A stretch of 34,006 bases of DNA, from the IMG/VR virus record IMGVR_UViG_2734482588_000013; one strand, 5' to 3'. Made by a program: the position numbers and the translations under genes. This document shows positions 2,327 to 32,786 of the stretch, one piece after another. Each line of letters opens with the position of its first letter. Position 1 is the stretch's first letter. Under the pieces are notes generated by a model. It did not search any database. It was given only the letters and a program-made list of their open reading frames with translations, and was not told the DNA's origin. The stretch comes from a virus. Lineage: Duplodnaviria; Heunggongvirae; Uroviricota; Caudoviricetes.

Positions 2327-5300
2327 TACCGATATGCTCCACTTAACCGACCACCATCACGGGCCTGCTGTTGCATAAAGTCCGCTGCCGCTTTTTTCCC
2401 AAGGTCATAAACCACCTTCAGGGCAGCCGGACCTATCTGCCCGTTCGTGCCATCGTTATTGATCTCGATGTTGTACTGCGGGGCAAACATCGCCATACCT
2501 GAACCACCAATATCCGCTACAACCCCCAGCTTACCGTCAGCACCACGACGCAGTGGCAGAATGGCTTCAGGTCCAGCTTCCCCCATCACACCCGCGCCTT
2601 TTGCAAAAGCAAAAAACGTCGGACGGTTAACCACCGTGCCACTGTAGCGGCTCAAATCAGCCGACTGATAAACACCGCCATCAGCATTGGCTACAAAATC
2701 AAAAGGCAGCGCGGAAGCAATGCCTTTTACCGCTTTCATTAAAGCTATCTGAGCCATGATTCTGGACATATCTGACAGCACAGAAGAGGTGAAGGATTTG
2801 AAATTGAGTTTGCCTGTAGTACAGAATGTCGCCAGCCAGTCACTCATGCTACTGAACGCAGACGTGAACAACTGTTCCACTGTCCCGGCTGTGTTATCTG
2901 CTTTCTCAGTGACATTCTGGAGTGCACGCAGGACTCCGTTTTTCCAGTCACCCTGAGCAATTTCAAGCTGTTGCCAATAACGGCGATTCTCATTCAGTTG
3001 TCGGTTCAGGCTCTCCGTCAGCGCCTGCTCGGCCTTTCTGTAGTCATCCGTGTTATATGTCCCTTTCTGCTCACTATCCCGCCTCAACTGCTCCAGCTGT
3101 TGCTGATATTTCTGGCGAAGACTCAGTTGTACCTGATATCGCTGCCTCTGCTGATCACCCATACCCACCGTGGCGATATCCAGGTCATGTTGCTGACGCT
3201 GAGCGCGCTCTTCTTCAGCCAGTTGACTGGTCAGCTGAATTGTTTTTTTCTTCAGCTCGTTGAGTGCCGTCTGTTTCTGAAGCTCCTGCTGTTTTACATC
3301 CAGCAGCGTCAGTGCCTGAATCAGTTCATCTTTACGGGCCAGCACACTCTTTTCATCTGCCGTCAGTTTTTTCCCGTCCAGGTCGCTGATGCGCTGCTGC
3401 AGAGCCAGAAGCTGTTTATGCGCTTCTGTCATCCTTTCCGTGGCAATGCCTGCTGACTGTCTGGCAGCAGCAATCTGTCCTTCCACCTGTGCCTGTTGCT
3501 GACTGTACTGCAGCAATAACCGGGTGGCCTCATCATTACGGGGTTCGCGTGTTTTTTTCTTACCGGATGCCAGGGCTTTCTCGTAACGTTCATTTTCACG
3601 TTGTATCGCCGCATCCCTGACAGCCTGATCGGCGTACTGCATGGCATTAATACGCGCAATTTCACGCTGATGTCGTGCTGCTTCCGTTTCATTCATCCGG
3701 TTCAGTGCAGCATTTTCAGCATTACGGCGTTTCTGTTGCTCCTGATAATTCCGCTCTGCCTGCTCTTTTGCATCCTGCAAATCCTTCTGGCGTTTTTTCT
3801 CCTGAAGCTCGTTAAGACGCTGCTGATCGTACTCAACCTGAGAAGATGATGCCGTCCAGGGGAGTCTTTTCGCCCGCGACACTTTCTCCTGTAAAGCGGA
3901 AATCTGTTCATCCAGCGAGTCTTCACGACCAATATTCATGGCCGCATCCCAGAAACGACTCCATAAATCAGACAGATACTTCAGCGTACTGCCCAGCGCA
4001 TTGAGGTTATTATCAATATCCGCAGTACGCCGACCGGTTTCCTCTGCCAGTGCAGACATGGCTATCCGTGCAGCATCACTGGACCGTCCCTGATCCCCAA
4101 GGACACGTATCTGCTCAAGCTGAGTGGCAGTAAGAAAATGCAGCTCATTGTCCAGAGCCTTCGCGGCATTTACAGGATCATCCTTCAGCCGCTTAAACTG
4201 ATTTATGGTATCGCTGACCGACTGGCCAACCGATCGCTCCATCTGTGCGGCAGCTCTCGCCACCATACCGATATCGTTTCCACGAAATGCACCACTCCCC
4301 ACCACCTGAGCCAGCGCACCGGCTGCAGCATGTTGCGTGATACCATTCCCGGAAATAGCACGACTAAGCGTCCACAGCTGCCCGGCAGTGACTCCGGCAT
4401 AATGCCCCGTCAGCGACAACTGGCGGTTAAATTCTTCCCCCTCCTTCTGACCGTCATACCAGGCTTTACCCAGACCATAGACGGACGCGGCAATACCGCC
4501 AATAACCCCGCCAAGCATCATGCCTTTCGGTGACATCAGAGTGTCTATCCATCCGGCACGGTTAGCCAGCGTTATCCCGGATCCCCTCAGCGCCCCTAAA
4601 TTGCCGCGGGCCAGTTCACCTATCAGAACGCCTATCTCCTGGCGGGCCGCTGCACTTTTCAGACCCAGCGAATGCGTGGCTTTTCCTGCCTGCTCCATTT
4701 TGCGGATATACACTTCTGCAGCACTGCTTACCCCCAGCTGGGCAGCCTTAGCACGAAGCAACTCAGAAGAAGAAAGATTCTGGCGGGTTGCCTGCTCTTT
4801 AAGCTGACGGATAAACGCCACTTTCTGTCGGGTAGCCTCTTCCTCAGCCTGCGTAAGAACACGGGTTTTCGCCGTAACCTCAGAAATCAGCGCCAGATAA
4901 TCCTGCTGACCAATCCCGCCACTGTTTCTGGCCTGTCGGATCTGCTGCTGAATACGCTGTAATTCCTGCAGCCCCGCACTGGCCTGTTTCACACTGTCAA
5001 TCTGACGATAAAACGCGGCAGCCGCTTTATCCTGAGCCTCCGCCAGAGCCATGGCCTGCGCCTGTTCCTCGCGCATTTTCTGGCTCAGCGCCTCCATGCG
5101 CTGGCGGGTTTGCTCCACCTCGCGGGCCATGCGTTCATGAGCCTGTGCGCTCTTCTCCACCGTCTGCGCATGGACGGATGCGGCTGTTGCAGCCGAAGAA
5201 GCCGCCTGCATTGTCTGCCGGGCGGCCTGAGTCTGACGCTCCATAAAACGCTGCATACGGGCAGAAGACCGTTCTGCATCGCTGGCTGCACCATTCAGAA

Positions 5301-5691: not shown

Positions 5692-6078
5692 TCAGGACTT
5701 TTCCGGCGTCAGCACCTCATGCTCCAAATCCCCGGCATTCTCAATGACTCCCATACCGCTCAGCGACAGAACCATCTCCGCCCCCGCTCCCAGGGCATCA
5801 TACGACCATGTTGTAATAACGGATGCGCAAAGCGTCTCAACATCCTGAGACTGTTCCGCATTCCACAGTGAGCGGGAAACCAGCCAGGCATTGATATCCA
5901 TCCCCATCCGCAAAAAAGCAATCTGTCGTTCAGCCTCCGGCAGTTCTCCCTCTTCGGCATCAAACTTTGCCGTTCGCTGCTGAACAAACGCCAGATATTC
6001 AATTCTCTGCAGCCCGGACAGCTCACTGAGCACCACGGACTGCTTTTCATAATTAAACGTGCCCTGTTTCAGAAACAT
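5692..6078 (-). CDS. G: tail assembly chaperone G
   Basis: Start chosen at MFLKQGTF (lambda gpG begins MFLKTESF) with GGTGGAG upstream. A-rich slippery-like sequence at the 3' end. Confidence 0.75.
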   Translation of the reverse strand: MFLKQGTFNYEKQSVVLSELSGLQRIEYLAFVQQRTAKFDAEEGELPEAERQIAFLRMGMDINAWLVSRSLWNAEQSQDVETLCASVITTWSYDALGAGAEMVLSLSGMGVIENAGDLEHEVLTPEKS

Positions 6079-6094
6079 CATGTTCTCCACCTGC

Positions 6095-6118
6095 AAAAAA
6101 GCCCCGGATAACCGGGGC
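6095..6118 (-). terminator. intrinsic terminator/attenuator between V and G
   Basis: On the minus strand: CCCCGG-ttat-CCGGGGC stem-loop followed by TTTTTT, located between the V stop (6139) and the G start (6078). Confidence 0.55.
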
Positions 6119-6138
6119 AAATGATGAGTATCGTCCTG

Positions 6139-14360: not shown

Positions 14361-14896
14361 TATTCCTCCTGGAGACTCTCTCCTTCCTCATCAGGAATTA
14401 ATTCAGCAGCACAAGCCTCGTAGGATTTTTCCTGAAGAGTGTATCGCAGGTCATCAATGGCCTGCTGTACAACGCCGACGGCCTGAGGAGTCAGGGCGCA
14501 ATCGCGTTCAAGAACATCCGGAATTGTCTCCAGAACCTGGACGACAGCCTTTCTCATGGACGAATAGACGATGACTACTTCATCAACGGGGATGAGTTTT
14601 CGCTGCTCCTTTTCCAGCTTGATCCTTTCATTTTCAGACTGGTACCAATCCTTTCTCTCTTTCGGCTCCATACGGGATGGATCATGAACAGAGTCTGCTG
14701 CCTCATGCTTCACACTAAACAGGGCAGGCCCGACATGCTGCAGGGCGTAAACGGGGTTCCCCCTGACAGTCGCTGCCACAGGAGTGTTGGCCGCGAGGAG
14801 CCGTTTTTTTACTGTGTCCCGGTGAAGCCCAAAGGCCTCGGCGATTTTAAAAACACTCCAGTAATAAGCATCACCGATCCCGCTCACATTTGACAT
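14360..14896 (-). CDS. terminase small subunit (Nu1-like)
   Basis: About 178-aa ORF directly downstream of cos. N-terminal HTH-like region and acidic C-terminus ending ELIP..., as in lambda Nu1. Start at the internal Met with GGAG 6 nt upstream. Confidence 0.65.
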   Translation of the reverse strand: MSNVSGIGDAYYWSVFKIAEAFGLHRDTVKKRLLAANTPVAATVRGNPVYALQHVGPALFSVKHEAADSVHDPSRMEPKERKDWYQSENERIKLEKEQRKLIPVDEVVIVYSSMRKAVVQVLETIPDVLERDCALTPQAVGVVQQAIDDLRYTLQEKSYEACAAELIPDEEGESLQEE

Positions 14897-19194: not shown

Positions 19195-19560
19195 CTAACG
19201 ATCCATCTCTAGCTCAATTTCTAACATCATTAACATGCCATCAACTACACCTTCAGCCTTTTGCAATAAACGCCCAACCCAGCAATCAGAACGCCCATGT
19301 TTACGGGCAAGCGCCATAAACGTCATACCACCTACATAATAATCCACTAATAAATCGTGCAAATCGCTGTTGTTCTTTTTCAGGCGAGCCATGCATCCAC
19401 AAATGATCATCGCGTCATCGTCACAACATTGCGGGCGGGATTTTACTTTTGAAGGGATTAGTCCTTTAAATCCTGCAGCAATAGACGACCAAGTGACATC
19501 CTCGTGATTATTTGCCACCCATGCCCCCCAACGTTCAAGAACCATTTGAATATCACGCAT
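19195..19560 (-). CDS. Q: late antiterminator Q (QuuD-like family)
   Basis: Protein [14 protein letters not shown]...[31 protein letters not shown] matches remembered E. coli prophage Q homologues. Start at the internal Met with GGAG 7 nt upstream. Confidence 0.85.
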
Positions 19561-19577
19561 CAACTTTCTCCACAAAA

Positions 19578-24075: not shown

Positions 24076-24296
24076 GCTGCACCTCCGAGATGCTTCATGT
24101 TTTTTCCGGAGCGAAAGGCTATAAGCGGCATACTGACGCGGTAATTACGGCCCAGCGGTTCACAAATCACCTTCTGACATTCACGGTCAACCAGGCTAAC
24201 ACGTAGAACATGCCCTGCAGGCGTGGTGTACCACTGACCCGGACGAGGACAACGGAAAGTCTGATTGGTAAAACGTTTGAAAATATTCCGGATCAT
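24072..24296 (-). CDS. hypothetical small protein
   Basis: 74-aa ORF tightly packed between the Rha-like and O-like genes, with ATGA-type coupling on both sides. Confidence 0.4.
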   Translation of the reverse strand: MIRNIFKRFTNQTFRCPRPGQWYTTPAGHVLRVSLVDRECQKVICEPLGRNYRVSMPLIAFRSGKNMKHLGGAA

Positions 24297-25441
24297 TTGC
24301 GCCCCCTTACCTCTGAAGGGTTCAGCGACAAATTTATGAGGCAGGCCAGCGCCGAAGCATCATTAATATAGTCATATAAGCTAACAGCCAGCGGAGATTC
24401 GGCTTTTGCCAACATAGGATAAAGCTGCTGCAGCCAGACCTGATGAATTGATGAAATGTAGGAACAGAGAACGCTGGCGTTATGTGCAACGTCGCTCGGT
24501 ACAGCGGGCTTTGAAAGCTGTTTCTCCATCTGGTTAAAGGCATTGATGTATGCCTCTTTGAACTGGGCAGCACGTTTACCCGTGAAACCCATAGCAAGAA
24601 ACGCAAAGCCGTCGCGGGTTATTTGATAGCAAGGTAGTTTGCGGCCTGATGCGTCGATGTACTCACTGAGCTGGAAATTCAGCTCAGTAAATTCGGCAGA
24701 GCATTCAAGAGACGCAATTTTTTGAATGACGTTTTTGTGTTGTTTGCCGAAATAACTAGCAACAGCCAGAGAAGAAGTAACAACTTTGTCTGCAATAATG
24801 CAAAGTTCAGGTTGAACTAAGGCAGGGATCGTAGCCATGATGGCAGCCTCCGTATGCAATGGATAACTTCCACCACCGGAAACGCCAATTTCGCTGGTGG
24901 TGAACTGAGCAGGGTTGGCGTAACCGGCGCATACGGAAACCGGCGCACCTTTCGGTGCCCCCACCCAGCCCACCATAATTTGGGTATAGCTGAGTTGTAG
25001 CAACAAAAAAGACGCTAACGCGCCAATTGTCGCCGTATGCAATTCCAGGACGCCAATCCCGGCACCCGCTTTATAAGGTGCCTGAACAGTGTAACGTCCC
25101 GGAATGGCAGAATCAATGTGCTGGTGGTCCTTCACACTCAACAAAATCACGCCTGAATTTCCACAAAGGACTAAAGCACTCATGCGGGTAGTCTTTGCGA
25201 AGATAGATAACGCGCTGTGTTTCTGGCTCCCAACGAATAACATGAACATAAAGTCCTCTTCCGTCACGAAACCAGCGGTTAAGTTCCTGCACAACTCGCC
25301 CCCCACAGTCAGGTAAAGTTCTCTGTGGTTACTTACAGCCAGGTGATTTGGTAATCTGCATTCATGCCGTAACAACAGGTGTGCAGCGACACTGACCACC
25401 AGCTGTTGCGACAAACGGTTATTTGCCGTTAAACTGTTCAT
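24293..25441 (-). CDS. Rha-family phage regulatory protein (382-aa ORF; Rha domain begins at internal start 24838)
   Basis: The C-terminal 181 aa (MATIPALVQPE...) carry a Rha-like domain and are preceded by GGAGG 8 nt upstream of the ATG at 24838. The upstream 200 aa are in frame, unrecognised, and begin with an ATGA overlap to the preceding gene. Confidence 0.55.
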   Translation of the reverse strand: MNSLTANNRLSQQLVVSVAAHLLLRHECRLPNHLAVSNHRELYLTVGGELCRNLTAGFVTEEDFMFMLFVGSQKHSALSIFAKTTRMSALVLCGNSGVILLSVKDHQHIDSAIPGRYTVQAPYKAGAGIGVLELHTATIGALASFLLLQLSYTQIMVGWVGAPKGAPVSVCAGYANPAQFTTSEIGVSGGGSYPLHTEAAIMATIPALVQPELCIIADKVVTSSLAVASYFGKQHKNVIQKIASLECSAEFTELNFQLSEYIDASGRKLPCYQITRDGFAFLAMGFTGKRAAQFKEAYINAFNQMEKQLSKPAVPSDVAHNASVLCSYISSIHQVWLQQLYPMLAKAESPLAVSLYDYINDASALACLINLSLNPSEVRGRK

Positions 25442-25989
25442 GCGTTAGTTTCTCCACAGACACAAAACGCCACGACGCCCGGAGCTGCACACTCGCGGGC
25501 GTCACTCTTTTCTGGAGCGCAGAAAATTTTGTAGACCAGTGCCGCATGCTCCTGGAGCTTCGAAATTGACAGATACAATTCATCATTAATTGCTGTCTTC
25601 TCATGCGGTTCCACTACACCGTCTTCAATTGCTGAACGAATCTGTTTTGAATAACTGCCGATCTGTTCAATGACTTCCAGCAGGCGTTGGTTGATATCGG
25701 CGTTGTCCACATCCTCGACGTCAGGAAGAGACACAAAGACGCCATTTGCAGACTGCGCCACAGCGTCAGCAATGAAGTGAGTGCCACCAGCACGCTGTAA
25801 AACCATTGCCCATCCCAGCGGGAAAATCTGATCGCCATCTGCACGAAGGCGGTTGAATAAAGCGTTCTCTGTTACATCCAGCCAGTCAGCAGCTTCAGCG
25901 TAACCCCCAGGCAATGCCGCGATAGTTTTTCTGACAGCTTTCACGTACCACTCGGGTTGTTTTTCCACTTTCCAATGATGCTTACCCAC
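25438..25989 (-). CDS. early regulatory protein in the cII position (CII/CP76-like, identity uncertain)
   Basis: 183-aa ORF immediately downstream of cro in the pR operon; assignment rests on position and a general resemblance to prophage CII-type regulators. Confidence 0.45.
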   Translation of the reverse strand: MGKHHWKVEKQPEWYVKAVRKTIAALPGGYAEAADWLDVTENALFNRLRADGDQIFPLGWAMVLQRAGGTHFIADAVAQSANGVFVSLPDVEDVDNADINQRLLEVIEQIGSYSKQIRSAIEDGVVEPHEKTAINDELYLSISKLQEHAALVYKIFCAPEKSDARECAAPGVVAFCVCGETNA

Positions 25990-26242
25990 GGCTTACCTCC
26001 TGTTCCTGTGGTTTAAACCCATTCTGGTTTTGGCTAGATTGAAAACGTGCCGGATAAAGAATCTGCATTTCGCTGATTTCACCCTTAAAAAAATTGGCCA
26101 GACGTTCTGCAAGATCGATAGATGGAATTTGTTCCAGTCTTTCAATACGACTCAGCGTCGCTGGATTGACCTGAACGCCCGCAGCAACATGCTGCAAAGT
26201 AAATCCGTGCGCCTTACGCACATTCCGTAATGGTGATTGCAT
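25982..26242 (-). CDS. cro: Cro-like HTH (XRE family) repressor
   Basis: 86-aa ORF with HTH motif (GFTLQHVAAGVQVNPATLSRIER), divergent from cI across the operator region. Confidence 0.75.
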   Translation of the reverse strand: MQSPLRNVRKAHGFTLQHVAAGVQVNPATLSRIERLEQIPSIDLAERLANFFKGEISEMQILYPARFQSSQNQNGFKPQEQEVSRG

Positions 26243-26339
26243 ATAACCTCCACATATTGCGTGATGAGCATATTATTTCACGCAAATATTTTGCGCAAGT
26301 TGATTTGCTTAACGCGCAATAAAGAAATGTAATAAACGC
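26243..26339. promoter_or_regulatory. OR operator / pR-pRM divergent promoter region
   Basis: cI-cro intergenic region with the inverted repeat TTGCGTGA-(13 nt)-TCACGCAA, a palindromic TTGCGCAA, and TTGCTTAACGCGCAA (TTGC-N7-GCAA). Confidence 0.6.
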
Positions 26340-27032
26340 ATGAACATAGGAAATCGAGTCAGACAACTTCGCCAGGCGAAGAACATGAAAATCGCCGATC
26401 TCGCTGAAGCAATAGGAGTGGATGCGGCGAATATCTCGCGCCTCGAAACAGGTAAGCAGAAACAATTCACTGAACAAGCCCTGAGTAATATTGCCAGGAG
26501 CTTAGGTGTTGATATTGCTGATCTCTTTACCTCAGACCTCAAAAGTAATACTGTATGTAAAAACAGTATTAGTGAGGATGTTGCGCAGGTGAAGGATGTA
26601 TTCCGTATTGAAATGCTGGATGTCAGTGCCAGTGCGGGAAATGGCCTTATCCAGGGCGGTGATGTCATTGATGTGATTCATGCCATTGAATACAGAACTG
26701 ATAATGCTGTATCGATGTTTGGTGGACGACCAGCAAATCACATTAAAGTTATCAACGTTCGTGGGGACAGTATGTGTCCAACCATTGAGCCAGGAGATCT
26801 CATCTTCGTTGATATCAGTATCAATCAGTTTGATGGGGATGGTATATATGTATTTGGTTTTGATGATAAAATTTACGTCAAACGACTGCAAATGATACCT
26901 GATAAACTGCTGGTAATTTCTGATAATCAGATTTACCGCGAATGGGGAATTACCAGCGAAAACGAACACCGGTTTATGGTCTTTGGAAAGGTCTTAATCA
27001 GTCAGTCACAAACCCTTAAGCGACACAATTAA
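26340..27032 (+). CDS. cI: CI-type prophage repressor (HTH + S24 LexA-like autopeptidase)
   Basis: N-terminal XRE HTH (RVRQLRQAKNMKIADLAEAIGVDAANISRLETG), Ala-Gly cleavage site (SASAGNG), and catalytic Ser/Lys motifs (GDSM...VKRL). Confidence 0.9.
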   Translation: MNIGNRVRQLRQAKNMKIADLAEAIGVDAANISRLETGKQKQFTEQALSNIARSLGVDIADLFTSDLKSNTVCKNSISEDVAQVKDVFRIEMLDVSASAGNGLIQGGDVIDVIHAIEYRTDNAVSMFGGRPANHIKVINVRGDSMCPTIEPGDLIFVDISINQFDGDGIYVFGFDDKIYVKRLQMIPDKLLVISDNQIYREWGITSENEHRFMVFGKVLISQSQTLKRHN

Positions 27033-27053
27033 CCCCCTACCTCAACATCAATT

Positions 27054-27078
27054 AGCCACCAGAAGGTGGCTTTTCATT
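27054..27078 (+). terminator. intrinsic terminator after cI
   Basis: AGCCACC-agaa-GGTGGCT stem-loop followed by TTTTCATT, 22 nt after the cI stop. Confidence 0.6.
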
Positions 27079-27084
27079 ACTCAC

Positions 27085-27140
27085 GCTATTGCATGTCTCG
27101 CAATAAAATACTTGCACGTTACGCAATTTCATTTTATCTT
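27085..27140 (+). promoter_or_regulatory. OL operators / candidate pL promoter
   Basis: Two TTGC-N7-GCAA sites (TTGCATGTCTCGCAA, TTGCACGTTACGCAA) matching the OR half-sites; possible -35 TTGCAC and -10 TATCTT with 17-nt spacing. Confidence 0.45.
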
Positions 27141-27550
27141 TCTTTCCAGACCAACAAACAAGGTCCTGACAAAATTTGGTTGTAACACGGCGTATGGCAC
27201 ATGCGTCGTTAGCGGTCTGGGGACGTTAAAGGGGACAATCCACTCCTTGCTCGGGCAAACAAACCAGGTAGCCGGAATGTGCAAGTCAATGAGGATGCTG
27301 ATAAGACGCCTAACCAGCGTGGCGATTCGGTTTGACGCCTGGGAAGAGACCAGGGTGCAACGATGATGGCATTTATGGAACCGCGACAAAGTGTGGTGCC
27401 GTAACTGGCTAAGTGCTCTCAGCGTTGTGGTAATCCGCGAAATGGCGCGGCGGTAAGTATGGCGGGGTTACTCTTTCCCCGTTGAGGACACCGGATTGTC
27501 AGGTTGACCATACGCCTGAGTGACAACCCCACCACAACAGCCACTGCTTT

Positions 27551-27690
27551 GGCGGTACCAGTTTGTACACTTGCTTCCGGCTGGTACCGCTCTTTTTACA
27601 AAACAGAGAAGAGCATCACCGGACGACGGGCTCATAACCCAATCCATCCGGGCGGCTGCACCGCAGGTGTTCTTCTCTGTTTTGTGGAGA
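27551..27690 (+). promoter_or_regulatory. structured leader RNA element (nut/put-like antitermination site candidate)
   Basis: 10-bp perfect hairpin GCGGTACCAG...CTGGTACCGC followed by CTCTTTTTACAA (boxA-like), then a 15-bp perfect inverted repeat ACAAAACAGAGAAGA (27598-27612) / TCTTCTCTGTTTTGT (27671-27685) enclosing a GC-rich loop. Confidence 0.35.
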
Positions 27691-27732
27691 AACCAACCGA
27701 CCTTGCAGGGTCGATATGATGAGGAGCAGCAA

Positions 27733-28095
27733 ATGGCTAGCGAACGCAGTACTGATGTGCAGGCATTTATCGGGGAGCTGGACGGCGGCGTATTTGAAAC
27801 CAAAATCGGCGCAGTTCTCAGTGAAGTCGCTTCCGGTGTGATGAACACGAAAACCAAAGGTAAGGTCTCGCTCAACCTGGAAATCGAACCGTTTGATGAG
27901 AACCGTGTGAAAATCAAACACAAACTCTCATATGTTCGCCCGACTAACCGCGGGAAAATTTCCGAAGAAGACACCACCGAAACGCCGATGTATGTCAATC
28001 GCGGTGGTCGCCTGACTATTCTGCAGGAAGACCAGGGACAATTACTGACTCTTGCCGGTGAGCCTGACGGAAAACTCCGCGCAGCAGGTCATTAA
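27733..28095 (+). CDS. YfdP-like hypothetical protein
   Basis: 120-aa ORF starting at the internal Met MASERSTDV with GAGGAG 6-7 nt upstream. The longer 191-aa ORF upstream is taken to be leader sequence. Confidence 0.55.
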   Translation: MASERSTDVQAFIGELDGGVFETKIGAVLSEVASGVMNTKTKGKVSLNLEIEPFDENRVKIKHKLSYVRPTNRGKISEEDTTETPMYVNRGGRLTILQEDQGQLLTLAGEPDGKLRAAGH

Positions 28096-29112: not shown

Positions 29113-29649
29113 ATGTCATTTATTAAAACTTTTTCCGGGAAGCATTTTTATTATGACAAGATAAATAAAGATGACATCGTTATTAACGATATCGCGGTTT
29201 CCCTTTCAAATATCTGTCGCTTTGCAGGACATCTTTCACACTTCTACAGTGTCGCCCAGCATGCGGTGCTTTGCAGCCAGCTGGTACCGCAGGAATTTGC
29301 TTTTGAAGCGTTAATGCATGATGCAACAGAAGCATATTGCCAGGACATCCCCGCTCCACTGAAACGCCTTCTTCCTGACTATAAACGGATGGAAGAAAAA
29401 ATAGATGCCGTAATCCGTGAGAAATACGGGTTACCCCCGGTTATGAGCACACCTGTGAAATATGCCGATCTCATCATGCTGGCAACCGAACGCCGCGATC
29501 TCGGGCTTGATGATGGCTCTTTCTGGCCTGTACTGGAAGGCATCCCGGCAACAGAGATGTTCAACGTGATTCCACTGGCACCGGGCCATGCCTACGGGAT
29601 GTTTATGGAACGTTTTAACGAGTTATCGGAGTTACGCAAATGCGCATGA
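29113..29649 (+). CDS. HD-domain phosphohydrolase (YfdR-like 5'-deoxynucleotidase)
   Basis: HD-domain metal-binding residues (H...HD...D: SVAQHAV, LMHDATEAY); start at MSFIKTFSGKHF with GGAG upstream. Confidence 0.75.
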   Translation: MSFIKTFSGKHFYYDKINKDDIVINDIAVSLSNICRFAGHLSHFYSVAQHAVLCSQLVPQEFAFEALMHDATEAYCQDIPAPLKRLLPDYKRMEEKIDAVIREKYGLPPVMSTPVKYADLIMLATERRDLGLDDGSFWPVLEGIPATEMFNVIPLAPGHAYGMFMERFNELSELRKCA

Positions 29650-31348: not shown

Positions 31349-31867
31349 ATGACCACTATTACCAAAGAACGTATCGAATTATTCATTAAAAATCCGCTTG
31401 ATAACGGGCTTACCCGTGGCGAACAAATGGAACTGGCACGGATTGCACTGGCATCGCTGGGAGCAGAACCTGTAAGCCAAACTTACAACTTGCCAGAATT
31501 AATCGAAGGCATGGAGGTTTCCATTGATGTAAGCACTTGTGATGCTGATTTAGGTAATCGCTATTTCGGCACCGTCACCGAGGCGTTAGAACTTGATACT
31601 GCCAAGAATGGTTACATCCTCCTGGTTCAGGACGCAGAGCCAAACTTCGATGTAAATGGCAACTATCCGGGAACTCCGGATAGTTGGATAAGCTGTAGTG
31701 ATCGAATGCCGAACGACGCGCAGTGGTGCGTAGTGAACACAGAATACGGGTATTACGTGCAATGCTGGTCTGAAGGTCAAGGGTGGCTTGGTGATGATAT
31801 CAGCATCCCTAAATGCGATGTAATCAATTGGATGCCTCTACCAGAACCGCCGCAGGAGGTGAAGTGA
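31349..31867 (+). CDS. DUF551 domain protein
   Basis: 172-aa ORF with a C-terminal DUF551-like motif (WISCSDRMP...VINWMPLPEPP). Confidence 0.6.
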   Translation: MTTITKERIELFIKNPLDNGLTRGEQMELARIALASLGAEPVSQTYNLPELIEGMEVSIDVSTCDADLGNRYFGTVTEALELDTAKNGYILLVQDAEPNFDVNGNYPGTPDSWISCSDRMPNDAQWCVVNTEYGYYVQCWSEGQGWLGDDISIPKCDVINWMPLPEPPQEVK

Positions 31868-32439
31868 TGAACAACTTAATGATCGACCTTGAGACGATGG
31901 GGAAAAATAAGGATGCACCGATCGTTTCCATTGGCGCGGTGTTCTTCACTCCAGAAACCGGAGACATCGGACAAGAATTCTATGCGGTTGTCAGCCTAGA
32001 CAGTGCTATGAAGCAAGGAGCTACACCTGACGGCGATACCATCCTGTGGTGGTTGAAACAAAGCCCTGAAGCGCGAGCTGCAATCTGTATTGATGATACT
32101 TTGTCGATCAGCGATGCTCTCTCAGAACTAAACCATTTCATTAACCGGCACGCAGACAATACGAAATATTTAAAAGTCTGGGGTAACGGAGCCACCTTCG
32201 ACAACGTAATTTTACGTGGAGCTTATGAGCGAGCAGGACAAATCTGCCCGTGGGCGTACTGGAATGACCACGATGTACGCACGATCGTTACACTTGGGCG
32301 TTCCATCGGATTCGACCCCAAAATGGACATGCCTTTCGATGGCGAACGGCACAACGCCATAGCTGATGCCCGTCATCAGGCAAAATATGTTTCCGCTATC
32401 TGGCAGAAATTAATTCCTGCCACCAGCACAGAATTATGA
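31867..32439 (+). CDS. DEDDh-type 3'-5' exonuclease
   Basis: Exo motifs DLET (I), WGNGATFD (II) and HNAIADARH (III); start at MNNLMIDLETMG with GGAGG upstream and a TGATG overlap. Confidence 0.7.
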   Translation: MNNLMIDLETMGKNKDAPIVSIGAVFFTPETGDIGQEFYAVVSLDSAMKQGATPDGDTILWWLKQSPEARAAICIDDTLSISDALSELNHFINRHADNTKYLKVWGNGATFDNVILRGAYERAGQICPWAYWNDHDVRTIVTLGRSIGFDPKMDMPFDGERHNAIADARHQAKYVSAIWQKLIPATSTEL

Positions 32440-32475
32440 TTTTCCCGGGTGCAGCCGGTTTTGATGGAGAAAATT

Positions 32476-32757
32476 ATGAACACCTTGTTTTTACTGATGG
32501 CTGAATTCAATACCCCAAACATTGAACTCTCAGCAATTAGCCAAAAGTACTTTGGTATGAGTCCAGCCACGGCAGAAGCAAAAGCAAACGCTTGTAAGTT
32601 GCCCGTTCCAACATATCGCATCGGCACATCACAAAAAGCAAAACGTTGCATCAATATTCAGGATCTTGCGGAATACATAGACAAAAGGCGAGAAGAAGGA
32701 CGTATCGAGTGGGAACAGGTCAGAACAGTCAAACAGAAGGGCAAAGAACATCACTAA
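32476..32757 (+). CDS. PrtN/excisionase-like small DNA-binding protein
   Basis: About 93-aa ORF at the distal end of the early-left operon (where xis usually sits), with a KLPVPTYRIGTSQKAKRCINIQDLAEYID motif. Confidence 0.5.
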   Translation: MNTLFLLMAEFNTPNIELSAISQKYFGMSPATAEAKANACKLPVPTYRIGTSQKAKRCINIQDLAEYIDKRREEGRIEWEQVRTVKQKGKEHH

Positions 32758-32759
32758 AG

Positions 32760-32786
32760 AAAAAACCCGCCTGAAGGCGGGTTTTC
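32760..32786. terminator. bidirectional intrinsic terminator
   Basis: AAAAAA-CCCGCC-tgaa-GGCGGG-TTTTCAAAAA, between the convergent early-left operon and the minus-strand accessory cassette. Confidence 0.7.

Follow-up and report, generated by a model that had tools for sequence, protein, structure and literature searches.

The put RNAs of lambdoid phages that lack N (putL and putR of HK022 and those of HK639 and HK75) are about 70 nt long and structured; they belong to early leaders, where two open stem-loops are located at the start of the transcript, 5' of the terminators, in both early operons. Their suppression of terminators is exerted in cis and requires the beta-prime zinc-binding domain of RNA polymerase. 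A different arrangement is the classic RNase III layout, in which the flanks of a structured RNA form a duplex, as in the lambda N leader, the T7 early sites and the 16S and 23S regions of rrn operons. Furthermore, stable RNAs other than tRNAs, such as the T4 species 1 and 2 RNAs and the C4 RNA of P1/P7, are processed together with phage tRNAs or by RNase P. Small RNAs processed by RNase III are documented as well (PMC8687705, PMC11745405). Many lambdoid phages, including SfV, ST64B, mEp460, cdtI, Stx2c-converting phages and LLS, possess neither N nor put, and a paper from 2025 could only guess at put for the early-left control of such phages (PMC12315714). One RNA from a prophage of this kind has been published, namely sRNA-17 of E. 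coli K1 RS218, a 193-nt RNA that was mapped by RACE, detected by Northern analysis and is encoded in an mEp460-like prophage (Song et al. 2020, PMC7719688).

The DNA analyzed here, the window, is a stretch of 34,006 nt that represents a lambdoid prophage of the SfV/mEp460/cdtI type. The gene for a cI-like repressor (26340-27032, + strand) is followed by a terminator-like hairpin at 27054-27071 (+ strand), for which a terminator scan gives a 7-bp stem with 5 GC pairs and then a TTTTCATT tail, and by a putative oL at 27089-27127, a direct repeat of two operator-like 16-mers, TTGCATGTCTCGCAAT and TTGCACGTTACGCAAT, that start at 27089 and 27112. The motif TTGCA-N6-GCAA is found here in its exact form, and a copy with one mismatch is present between cI and cro (26305-26319). 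The putative oL overlaps the putative pL promoter, for which the sequence suggests a -35 element TTGCAC (27112-27117), a 17-nt spacer and a -10 element TATCTT (27135-27140). The first early-left gene is yfdP (PF27127/phrog_204; + strand, from the ATG at 27733 to 28095), with the Shine-Dalgarno sequence GAGGAG at 27721-27726; given its start at 27733, the pL leader is therefore about 580 nt long. The start codon is 42 nt past 27690, consistent with the preliminary description of this DNA, made from its letters alone, in which a structured element was said to end shortly 5' of the first early-left gene. The same description noted that cro overlaps the next gene of the right operon and that no N-like ORF is evident, and both statements hold: on the minus strand, cro (25982-26242) shares 8 nt with a CII-like gene (25438-25989), and gene and domain searches identify no N-like protein in the window, with the small ORFs of the leader receiving no Pfam or PHROG support. 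The gene for the Q protein is located at 19195-19575 (minus strand).

Several other features of this region deserve mention. About 245 nt of the pL leader (27187-27430) constitute a mosaic non-coding module that recurs in other phages, at unrelated sites, with 83% identity; it adjoins the terminase gene in TL-2011b (L243, 1801-2045) and is present in PH444 too. The fragment published as the sRNA-17 promoter (27174-27423) spans this module. The early-left operon ends at a strong bidirectional terminator (AAAAACCCGCCTGAAGGCGGGTTTTC, 32761-32786), which is located 3' of the genes for a PrtN-like protein (32449-32757) and an Rv2179c-like 3'-5' exoribonuclease (31813-32439). An Rfam search detects a C4 antisense RNA (80.7 bits) and an adjacent isrK (61.2 bits) at 24893-25081 on the minus strand, inside a mechanically called 382-aa ORF (24293-25441) in which the Ash and Rha domains start only at residue 117. 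The true start of this ORF is probably downstream of both RNAs, and the region looks like an antirepressor control module of the P1/P7 immI type in the right operon.

The stretch of the leader to which the preliminary description drew attention comprises two adjacent elements, the terminator of the published sRNA-17 followed by a conserved folded RNA. Hairpin 1 had been reported as a perfect GC-rich hairpin of 10 bp; its perfect arms are indeed found at 27552-27561 and 27581-27590, and the predicted fold lengthens the stem to 13 pairs (27551-27563 with 27579-27591, + strand; repeat search and fold) around a 15-nt loop region. Next comes a U-tract, CUUUUU (27592-27597, + strand), within the CTCTTTTTAC run at 27590-27599, with U5 (27593-27597) separated from the stem by one nucleotide, so that the GC-rich stem, the single nucleotide and U5 show the layout of an intrinsic terminator. 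Relatives from about 15 enterobacterial genera keep the hairpin while the stem varies (GGCGGUACCAG, GGCGGCGUC, GGCGGCAUC, GCCCAUC, GUCGGCGUC, GGGCGGUAACA and others). Nearly all of the approximately 78 upstream contexts of the long-stem form contain a GC stem with 4-7 consecutive U beginning 0-3 nt past it, with at least 10 distinct stem sequences. In vivo, an RNA 3' end within the U-run has been seen for the sRNA-17 of a relative, encoded in another prophage than that of the window. The identification of hairpin 1 and the U-run as a Rho-independent terminator that ends a leader RNA, sRNA-17, is well supported. The letters that had been taken for a boxA-like run are present but represent the U-tract of this terminator.

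The primers in Table S2 of the sRNA-17 study (PMC7719688) place this RNA at 4385-4577 of mEp460 (L001) on the + strand, i.e., in the pL sense; strand and position are set by the full-length PCR primers and the 3'-RACE sense primer. The RNA ends with ...CCGCTCTTTT, within the U-run of hairpin 1, and occupies the same locus in mEp460-like prophages, but stops short of hairpin 2. Its counterpart in the window is 27421-27596 (+ strand). The two RNAs have the start and the 3' terminator in common, whereas the body is wholly different (27431-27530 in the window versus 4395-4515 in L001), and the "degenerative sRNA-17" class of the paper probably reflects a cassette-like swap of the body. The paper neither names the 3' hairpin a terminator nor assigns the RNA to the pL leader; the published virulence-linked sRNA-17 is re-interpreted here as a terminated pL-leader RNA. 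In the sRNA-17 deletion strain, the reads of yfdP rise from 0.49 to 47, i.e., about 95-fold (PMC7719688). This increase is compatible with transcription that enters from the inserted cassette and passes the terminator, which the deletion leaves in place. The cassette is presumably oriented as in pKD3.

The second element, hairpin 2, has arms at 27598-27622 and 27661-27685 that are 84% complementary. Watson-Crick pairing is perfect over the outer 15 bp, as expected from the 15-bp perfect inverted repeat reported previously. The enclosed segment, described at the time as a GC-rich, self-complementary loop, has these properties in its letters but is itself folded into two more helices, P2 and P3, instead of forming a loop, and the element, which spans 27598-27685 on the + strand, is therefore a three-way junction. 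The closing helix P1 consists of 20 bp between the 5' arm (27598-27617, + strand) and the 3' arm (27666-27685), and of five additional U:G or U:A pairs that form in the read-through RNA between the terminator U-run (27593-27597) and the conserved GGAGA at 27686-27690, which directly follows the 3' arm (27666-27690 together, + strand). P2 (27619-27651, + strand) contains a lower stem, CCGGA/UCCGG, and a tip, GACGGGCUCAUAACCCAAUCCA, that is the most conserved part of the junction RNA. P3 (27652-27664, + strand) is a variable hairpin, GCGG-CUGCA-CCGC, whose counterparts in relatives measure from 13 to about 40 nt. The junction is followed, before the ribosome-binding site, by a 6-bp GC hairpin, hairpin 3 (27698-27713, + strand), whose position is kept in relatives with other letters (GGCGGUGGCAGCCGCC, GCCCCUACGGGGGC, GCGGCGAUCGCCGC). 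The 156-nt segment 27545-27700 folds at -72.1 kcal/mol, compared with -44.1 +/- 4.2 kcal/mol for 200 dinucleotide shuffles (z = -6.65), and 0 of the 200 are as stable. In a fold of the whole leader, CUGCUUU (27543-27549) is predicted to pair with the Shine-Dalgarno region of yfdP, GAGGAGCAG (27720-27729), a pairing that encloses the terminator, the junction and hairpin 3 in one predicted domain.

Folding and covariance across relatives had been proposed as a check, and for hairpin 2 covariation is present. In an alignment of 40 sequences, 91.8% of the cells are paired under the specified structure compared with 38-47% with slid partners, 17 of the 27 pairs have changed on both sides, and the observed pairing is reached by 0 of 500 shuffles. 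Full-length P1 (26 positions) has 90.1% of cells paired and 12 pairs changed on both sides, a result matched by 0 of 500 shuffles. The lower stem of P2 covaries (A:U to G:C, G:C to A:U, G:C to U:A), and three of the four pairs of P3 have changed on both sides. The alignment contains many G:U pairs. A covariance model of the junction family (R1) has a sole significant match in the window, at 27605-27678 on the + strand (85.8 bits, E = 2e-19), versus 20 bits on the minus strand; because the score is far higher on the + strand, the RNA is read in the pL direction.

The sampling behind these comparisons has to be kept in mind. Since most family members were found by a pattern that required the P2 tip, part of the invariance of this tip follows from the search itself; the BLAST matches and the copy from Mangrovibacter, which was found via YfdP, are free of this bias. 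These members keep GACGGGCUCAU and AAUCC, and the end of the loop varies (CUCAUAA, CUCAUUA, CUCAUUC). The yfdP loci from viral contigs are all 100% identical to the query, and diversity was taken from distant YfdP homologues.

The junction RNA does not correspond to any described family among those searched. Rfam 15 yields nothing better than E = 3 in 27030-27760 at gathering and permissive thresholds, and leaves the element unmatched in L003 and in the L125, L127, L238, L239 and L242 loci. A literature search did not find the core sequence in any paper, and the Pas small RNAs are unrelated to it. A hammerhead, suggested by CUGAUGA in the Klebsiella form, can be rejected, there being neither a GAAA box nor an Rfam match. 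The same applies to a tRNA gene, given that ARAGORN, whether run with default settings, at a low threshold or in mitochondrial mode, makes no CAU call and that the Rfam tRNA model matches the neighboring tRNAs but misses the element. An upstream ORF starting from the conserved RUGGAGAA was rejected as well: the start is ACG in some relatives, and the frame can be as short as 3 codons or exceed 20. Finally, a candidate for a cis target of the CUCAUAA loop, a 10-nt match in yfdR (29439-29448), occurs in the window and mEp460 only and is attributed to chance.

The 191-nt block 27545-27735 is present in 2493 of 5426 complete E. coli genomes (46%), in up to 5 copies per genome, and carries no annotation in most RefSeq genomes or is labelled "hypothetical protein". 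Pattern scans retrieve more than 120 viral contigs as well as 25 genome hits at the species level, 23 of which are labelled Enterobacterales and represent about 15 genera (Escherichia, Shigella, Citrobacter, Enterobacter, Kosakonia, Leclercia, Klebsiella, Raoultella, Phytobacter, Buttiauxella, Pseudescherichia, Pseudocitrobacter, Mixta, Erwinia and Pantoea). A hit labelled Chryseobacterium (L136) displays the complete enterobacterial architecture and probably represents contamination, and one in a Promineifilaceae genome bin (L140) looks like a chance match. The usual order is terminator, U-run, P1, junction, P1', GGAGA, GC hairpin, ribosome-binding site and first gene, which is yfdP in many members and another gene in others.

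A second context is revealed by BLAST, which detects matches of the interior 27604-27654 (82% identity) in Klebsiella phages, just 3' of tRNA genes and downstream of Q. In these phages and in those of Raoultella, the P2-P3 core is closed by a stem of only 6-7 bp, GGCCUG/CAGGCC, which is followed by RCCA in 15 of 16 variants. About 5-6 nt separate this form from the 3' end of the preceding tRNA, which is tRNA-Asn, tRNA-Arg or another one, probably tRNA-Thr. The form is located in the late leader between a tR'-like terminator and a second terminator, upstream of the lysis genes. The core of Pantoea phage PA-1, like that of a Pantoea genome, directly follows a terminator, which in PA-1 is located in the late leader. 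One contig (L101) contains both forms on the same strand, 8.5 kb apart: the long-stem form (6054-6130) in the leader upstream of yfdP, and a form of the tRNA-array type (14608-14688) after Q and a tR'-like terminator. The prophage in this contig is possibly rearranged because its early-left genes run straight into NinG and Q.

The converse situation is found in the yfdP leaders of Serratia and Gibbsiella, which have the same terminator, long stem, GGAGA and hairpin 3 around an unrelated stem interior; a Budviciaceae genome likewise has the long stem with an unrelated interior upstream of yfdP. Long stems of this kind and of similar size upstream of yfdP were located at 1382-1453 in L238, 1379-1450 in L239 and 385-458 in L240, with interiors of 46-48 nt. 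The interiors from Serratia, Gibbsiella and Budviciaceae may be alternative RNA cargoes in one frame. In contig L241 the terminator is directly followed by a ribosome-binding site, without the stem, and in Mixta tenebrionis (L134) a promoter-like TTGATT-N18-TATAGT is located directly 5' of the junction, without a leader RNA or terminator. A palindromic operator-like sequence, CTACTTAAAGTAG, is present at this promoter-like site (L134, ~1540-1600). Given these differing contexts, the long stem and the core are separable modules, with one stem holding several cargoes and one cargo found in several stems.

Our leading interpretation, to which we assign a probability of about 40%, is that the junction is a processing module, of the RNase III type in the window, that releases or presents a conserved small RNA. 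RNA polymerase that passes the terminator would transcribe the junction RNA, and an RNase III-type enzyme would use the P1 duplex, which is long and perfect, as its substrate. Cleavage of P1 would sever the yfdP mRNA from the structured leader, open the predicted link between 27543-27549 and the Shine-Dalgarno region, and yield the P2-P3 core in the form of a stable small RNA. In the Klebsiella-type form, tRNA-processing enzymes such as RNase P could free the core from behind the tRNA genes. Because both routes would yield the same core, this scheme would account for the independence of the core from its context and for the conservation of its loops. The near-perfect duplex of about 20 bp is what is expected of an RNase III stem and is kept by compensatory changes, and the modularity, with the same stem around another interior and the same core in another closing stem, also speaks for processing. 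Of the functions suggested in the preliminary description for this element, either cis-acting antitermination of the put or nut type or processing, it is the latter that stands as the leading idea. A weak point of the processing interpretation is that RNase III leaves the conservation of the P2 tip unexplained. In addition, the P1 of the tRNA-array form is only 6-7 bp long, so that two different enzymes are needed, and the absence of the terminator from the Mixta locus and of the stem from L241 indicates that the parts are separable, which also counts against this interpretation.

A less probable alternative, although the best of those considered, is that the element is purely structural and acts in cis without any released product. 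The terminator would insulate the early-left genes from leader or lysogenic transcription, and the junction together with hairpin 3 would shield the leader from Rho and RNases or tune the translation of yfdP. The whole leader (591 nt) is unusually structured (z = -4.07), the positions of hairpin 3 and of the ribosome-binding site are conserved, and both the predicted pairing of 27543-27549 with the Shine-Dalgarno region and the approximately 95-fold increase of yfdP in the sRNA-17 deletion strain (PMC7719688), itself compatible with cassette read-through, can be seen in this light. A structural role, however, does not explain why 22 nt of the tip are conserved across about 15 genera despite covarying stems, or why the same core recurs behind tRNA genes, far from ribosome-binding sites.

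It appears unlikely that the junction is a cis-acting processive antiterminator RNA, put-like in function, that replaces N, i.e., that the nascent RNA binds its own polymerase and makes it resistant to terminators or Rho. The operons whose leaders contain the junction, pL as well as late ones, are long; the phages that carry it have neither N (PMC12315714) nor put; P2 and P3 are adjacent stem-loops with conserved single-stranded bases; in the Mixta locus the junction is about 30 nt past the promoter, comparable to putL at the transcription start; and L101 has two copies in different transcription units. Homology to put is nevertheless not detectable. A covariance model built from six put RNAs (R2; HK022 putL and putR, and putL-type RNAs of HK639, CobraSix, phiEt88 and S9-5) scores 95.9, 90.1 and 52.2 bits on its controls from HK022 and HK639, compared with a best score of 8.3 bits (E = 1.3) in the window, outside the leader, and finds no put in mEp460, ST64B, LLS, Kp4866-6, GZ7 or PA-1. 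The put hallmarks, CGAACGGC, GUCGG and GGCGGG-UCAGGA-GA-CGGCAAU with two stem-loops, have no counterpart in the sequence or structure of the element. The junction is located 3', rather than 5', of the only clear intrinsic terminator of the operon, and the next strong + strand terminator is that of the operon end (32761-32786). There is one copy in the window and none in the right operon, unlike put, which is present in both early operons, and the structure is a closed three-way junction behind a terminator instead of two open stem-loops at the transcript start. Moreover, Q already antiterminates in late leaders, and neither a closing helix of 20-25 bp nor the swapped interior in Serratia is expected of a polymerase-binding RNA. 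These findings do not support the put-like element that had been proposed.

Rather doubtful, too, is the idea that the P2-P3 core is a trans-acting phage small RNA that exposes a copy of an anticodon arm, namely that of the initiator tRNA. The P2 tip at 27627-27640, CGGGCUCAUAACCC, shares all of its 14 nt with the anticodon stem-loop of the initiator tRNA of E. coli, the reference sequence of which was confirmed as tRNA-Met in 5426 of 5426 genomes; the likeness consists of three G:C pairs and the loop CUCAUAA. A mimic of an anticodon arm is known from the thrS operator. The core would be cut either from the first early transcript by RNase III or from tRNA arrays by tRNA-processing enzymes, and might then bind a factor of the host or of a defence system that recognizes this arm, for instance a VapC-type toxin that cleaves tRNA-fMet, an initiation factor, the 30S P site or MetRS. 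If this is correct, the core would be a decoy or modulator of translation initiation during infection. An anticodon-arm mimic would be expected to have, on a G:C stem, a 7-nt loop with U33, the anticodon and a purine at position 37. In ST64B and Klebsiella the loop reads CUCAUUA, and the Mangrovibacter copy has CUCAUUC, so that U occupies position 37 and the purine-37 rule is broken.

Very improbable is a nut-like site in which the boxA, CGCUCUUUUUAC, and a boxB hairpin recruit Nus factors and an unrecognized N-like protein. The boxA consensus is CGCUCUUA or UGCUCUUUAACAA, which the CGCUCUUUUUACAA of the window resembles, and a boxA beside a long-range processing stem recalls rrn leaders. GCUCUUU is, however, found in only one of about 20 species-level relatives, the others having GUCCUUUUU, GCACUUUUUU, GCCCUUUUU or GCAUUUUUUU, while nearly all of these relatives have a GC stem and then U5-7. 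Instead of a conserved single-stranded boxA (GCUCUUUA-like), the first bases of the run are paired in the terminator stem, and the 3' end of the published RNA is located there. P3, the candidate boxB, is conserved in neither sequence nor length, the window yields no N-like protein, and the right operon lacks a second site, so that the suggestion of a non-canonical nut likewise loses its support.

That the region encodes a protein is practically excluded, notwithstanding the ORFs annotated across it in mEp460, cdtI and some RefSeq genomes ("hypothetical protein") and the match of phrog_3651 to a minus-strand ORF, since these ORFs differ among records and most RefSeq genomes annotate nothing, the junction length (74, 75, 76, 77, 79, 83, 94-100 nt) differs by non-multiples of three even between close relatives, a 1-nt deletion in P3 of the window being one such case, and the compensatory changes and strand-specific G:U pairs mark an RNA. 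The ORFs matched by phrog_3651 are antisense to yfdP and the leader (27468-27998 in the window, 4501-4644 in L001), and a 1-nt indel in P3 truncates the annotated antisense ORF between close relatives. This family is probably built from spurious antisense ORFs, and the junction region is, by all these comparisons, non-coding.

The pL leader of these N-less phages thus contains a real terminator and then an RNA family that is supported by covariation and carried by 46% of complete E. coli genomes, although both Rfam and genome annotation lack it. Among the known systems, the RNase III processing stems are similar in that a long duplex formed by the flanks surrounds a structured RNA just 5' of the first gene of an operon; they differ in that the tRNA-array form is closed by 6-7 bp only, and cleavage in the present case is putative. 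With respect to the T4 species 1 and 2 RNAs and C4 RNA, we know of no relation to the junction core in sequence; the likeness is in the arrangement, with the Klebsiella-type form starting about 5-6 nt past a tRNA and ending with RCCA after the 6-7-bp stem.
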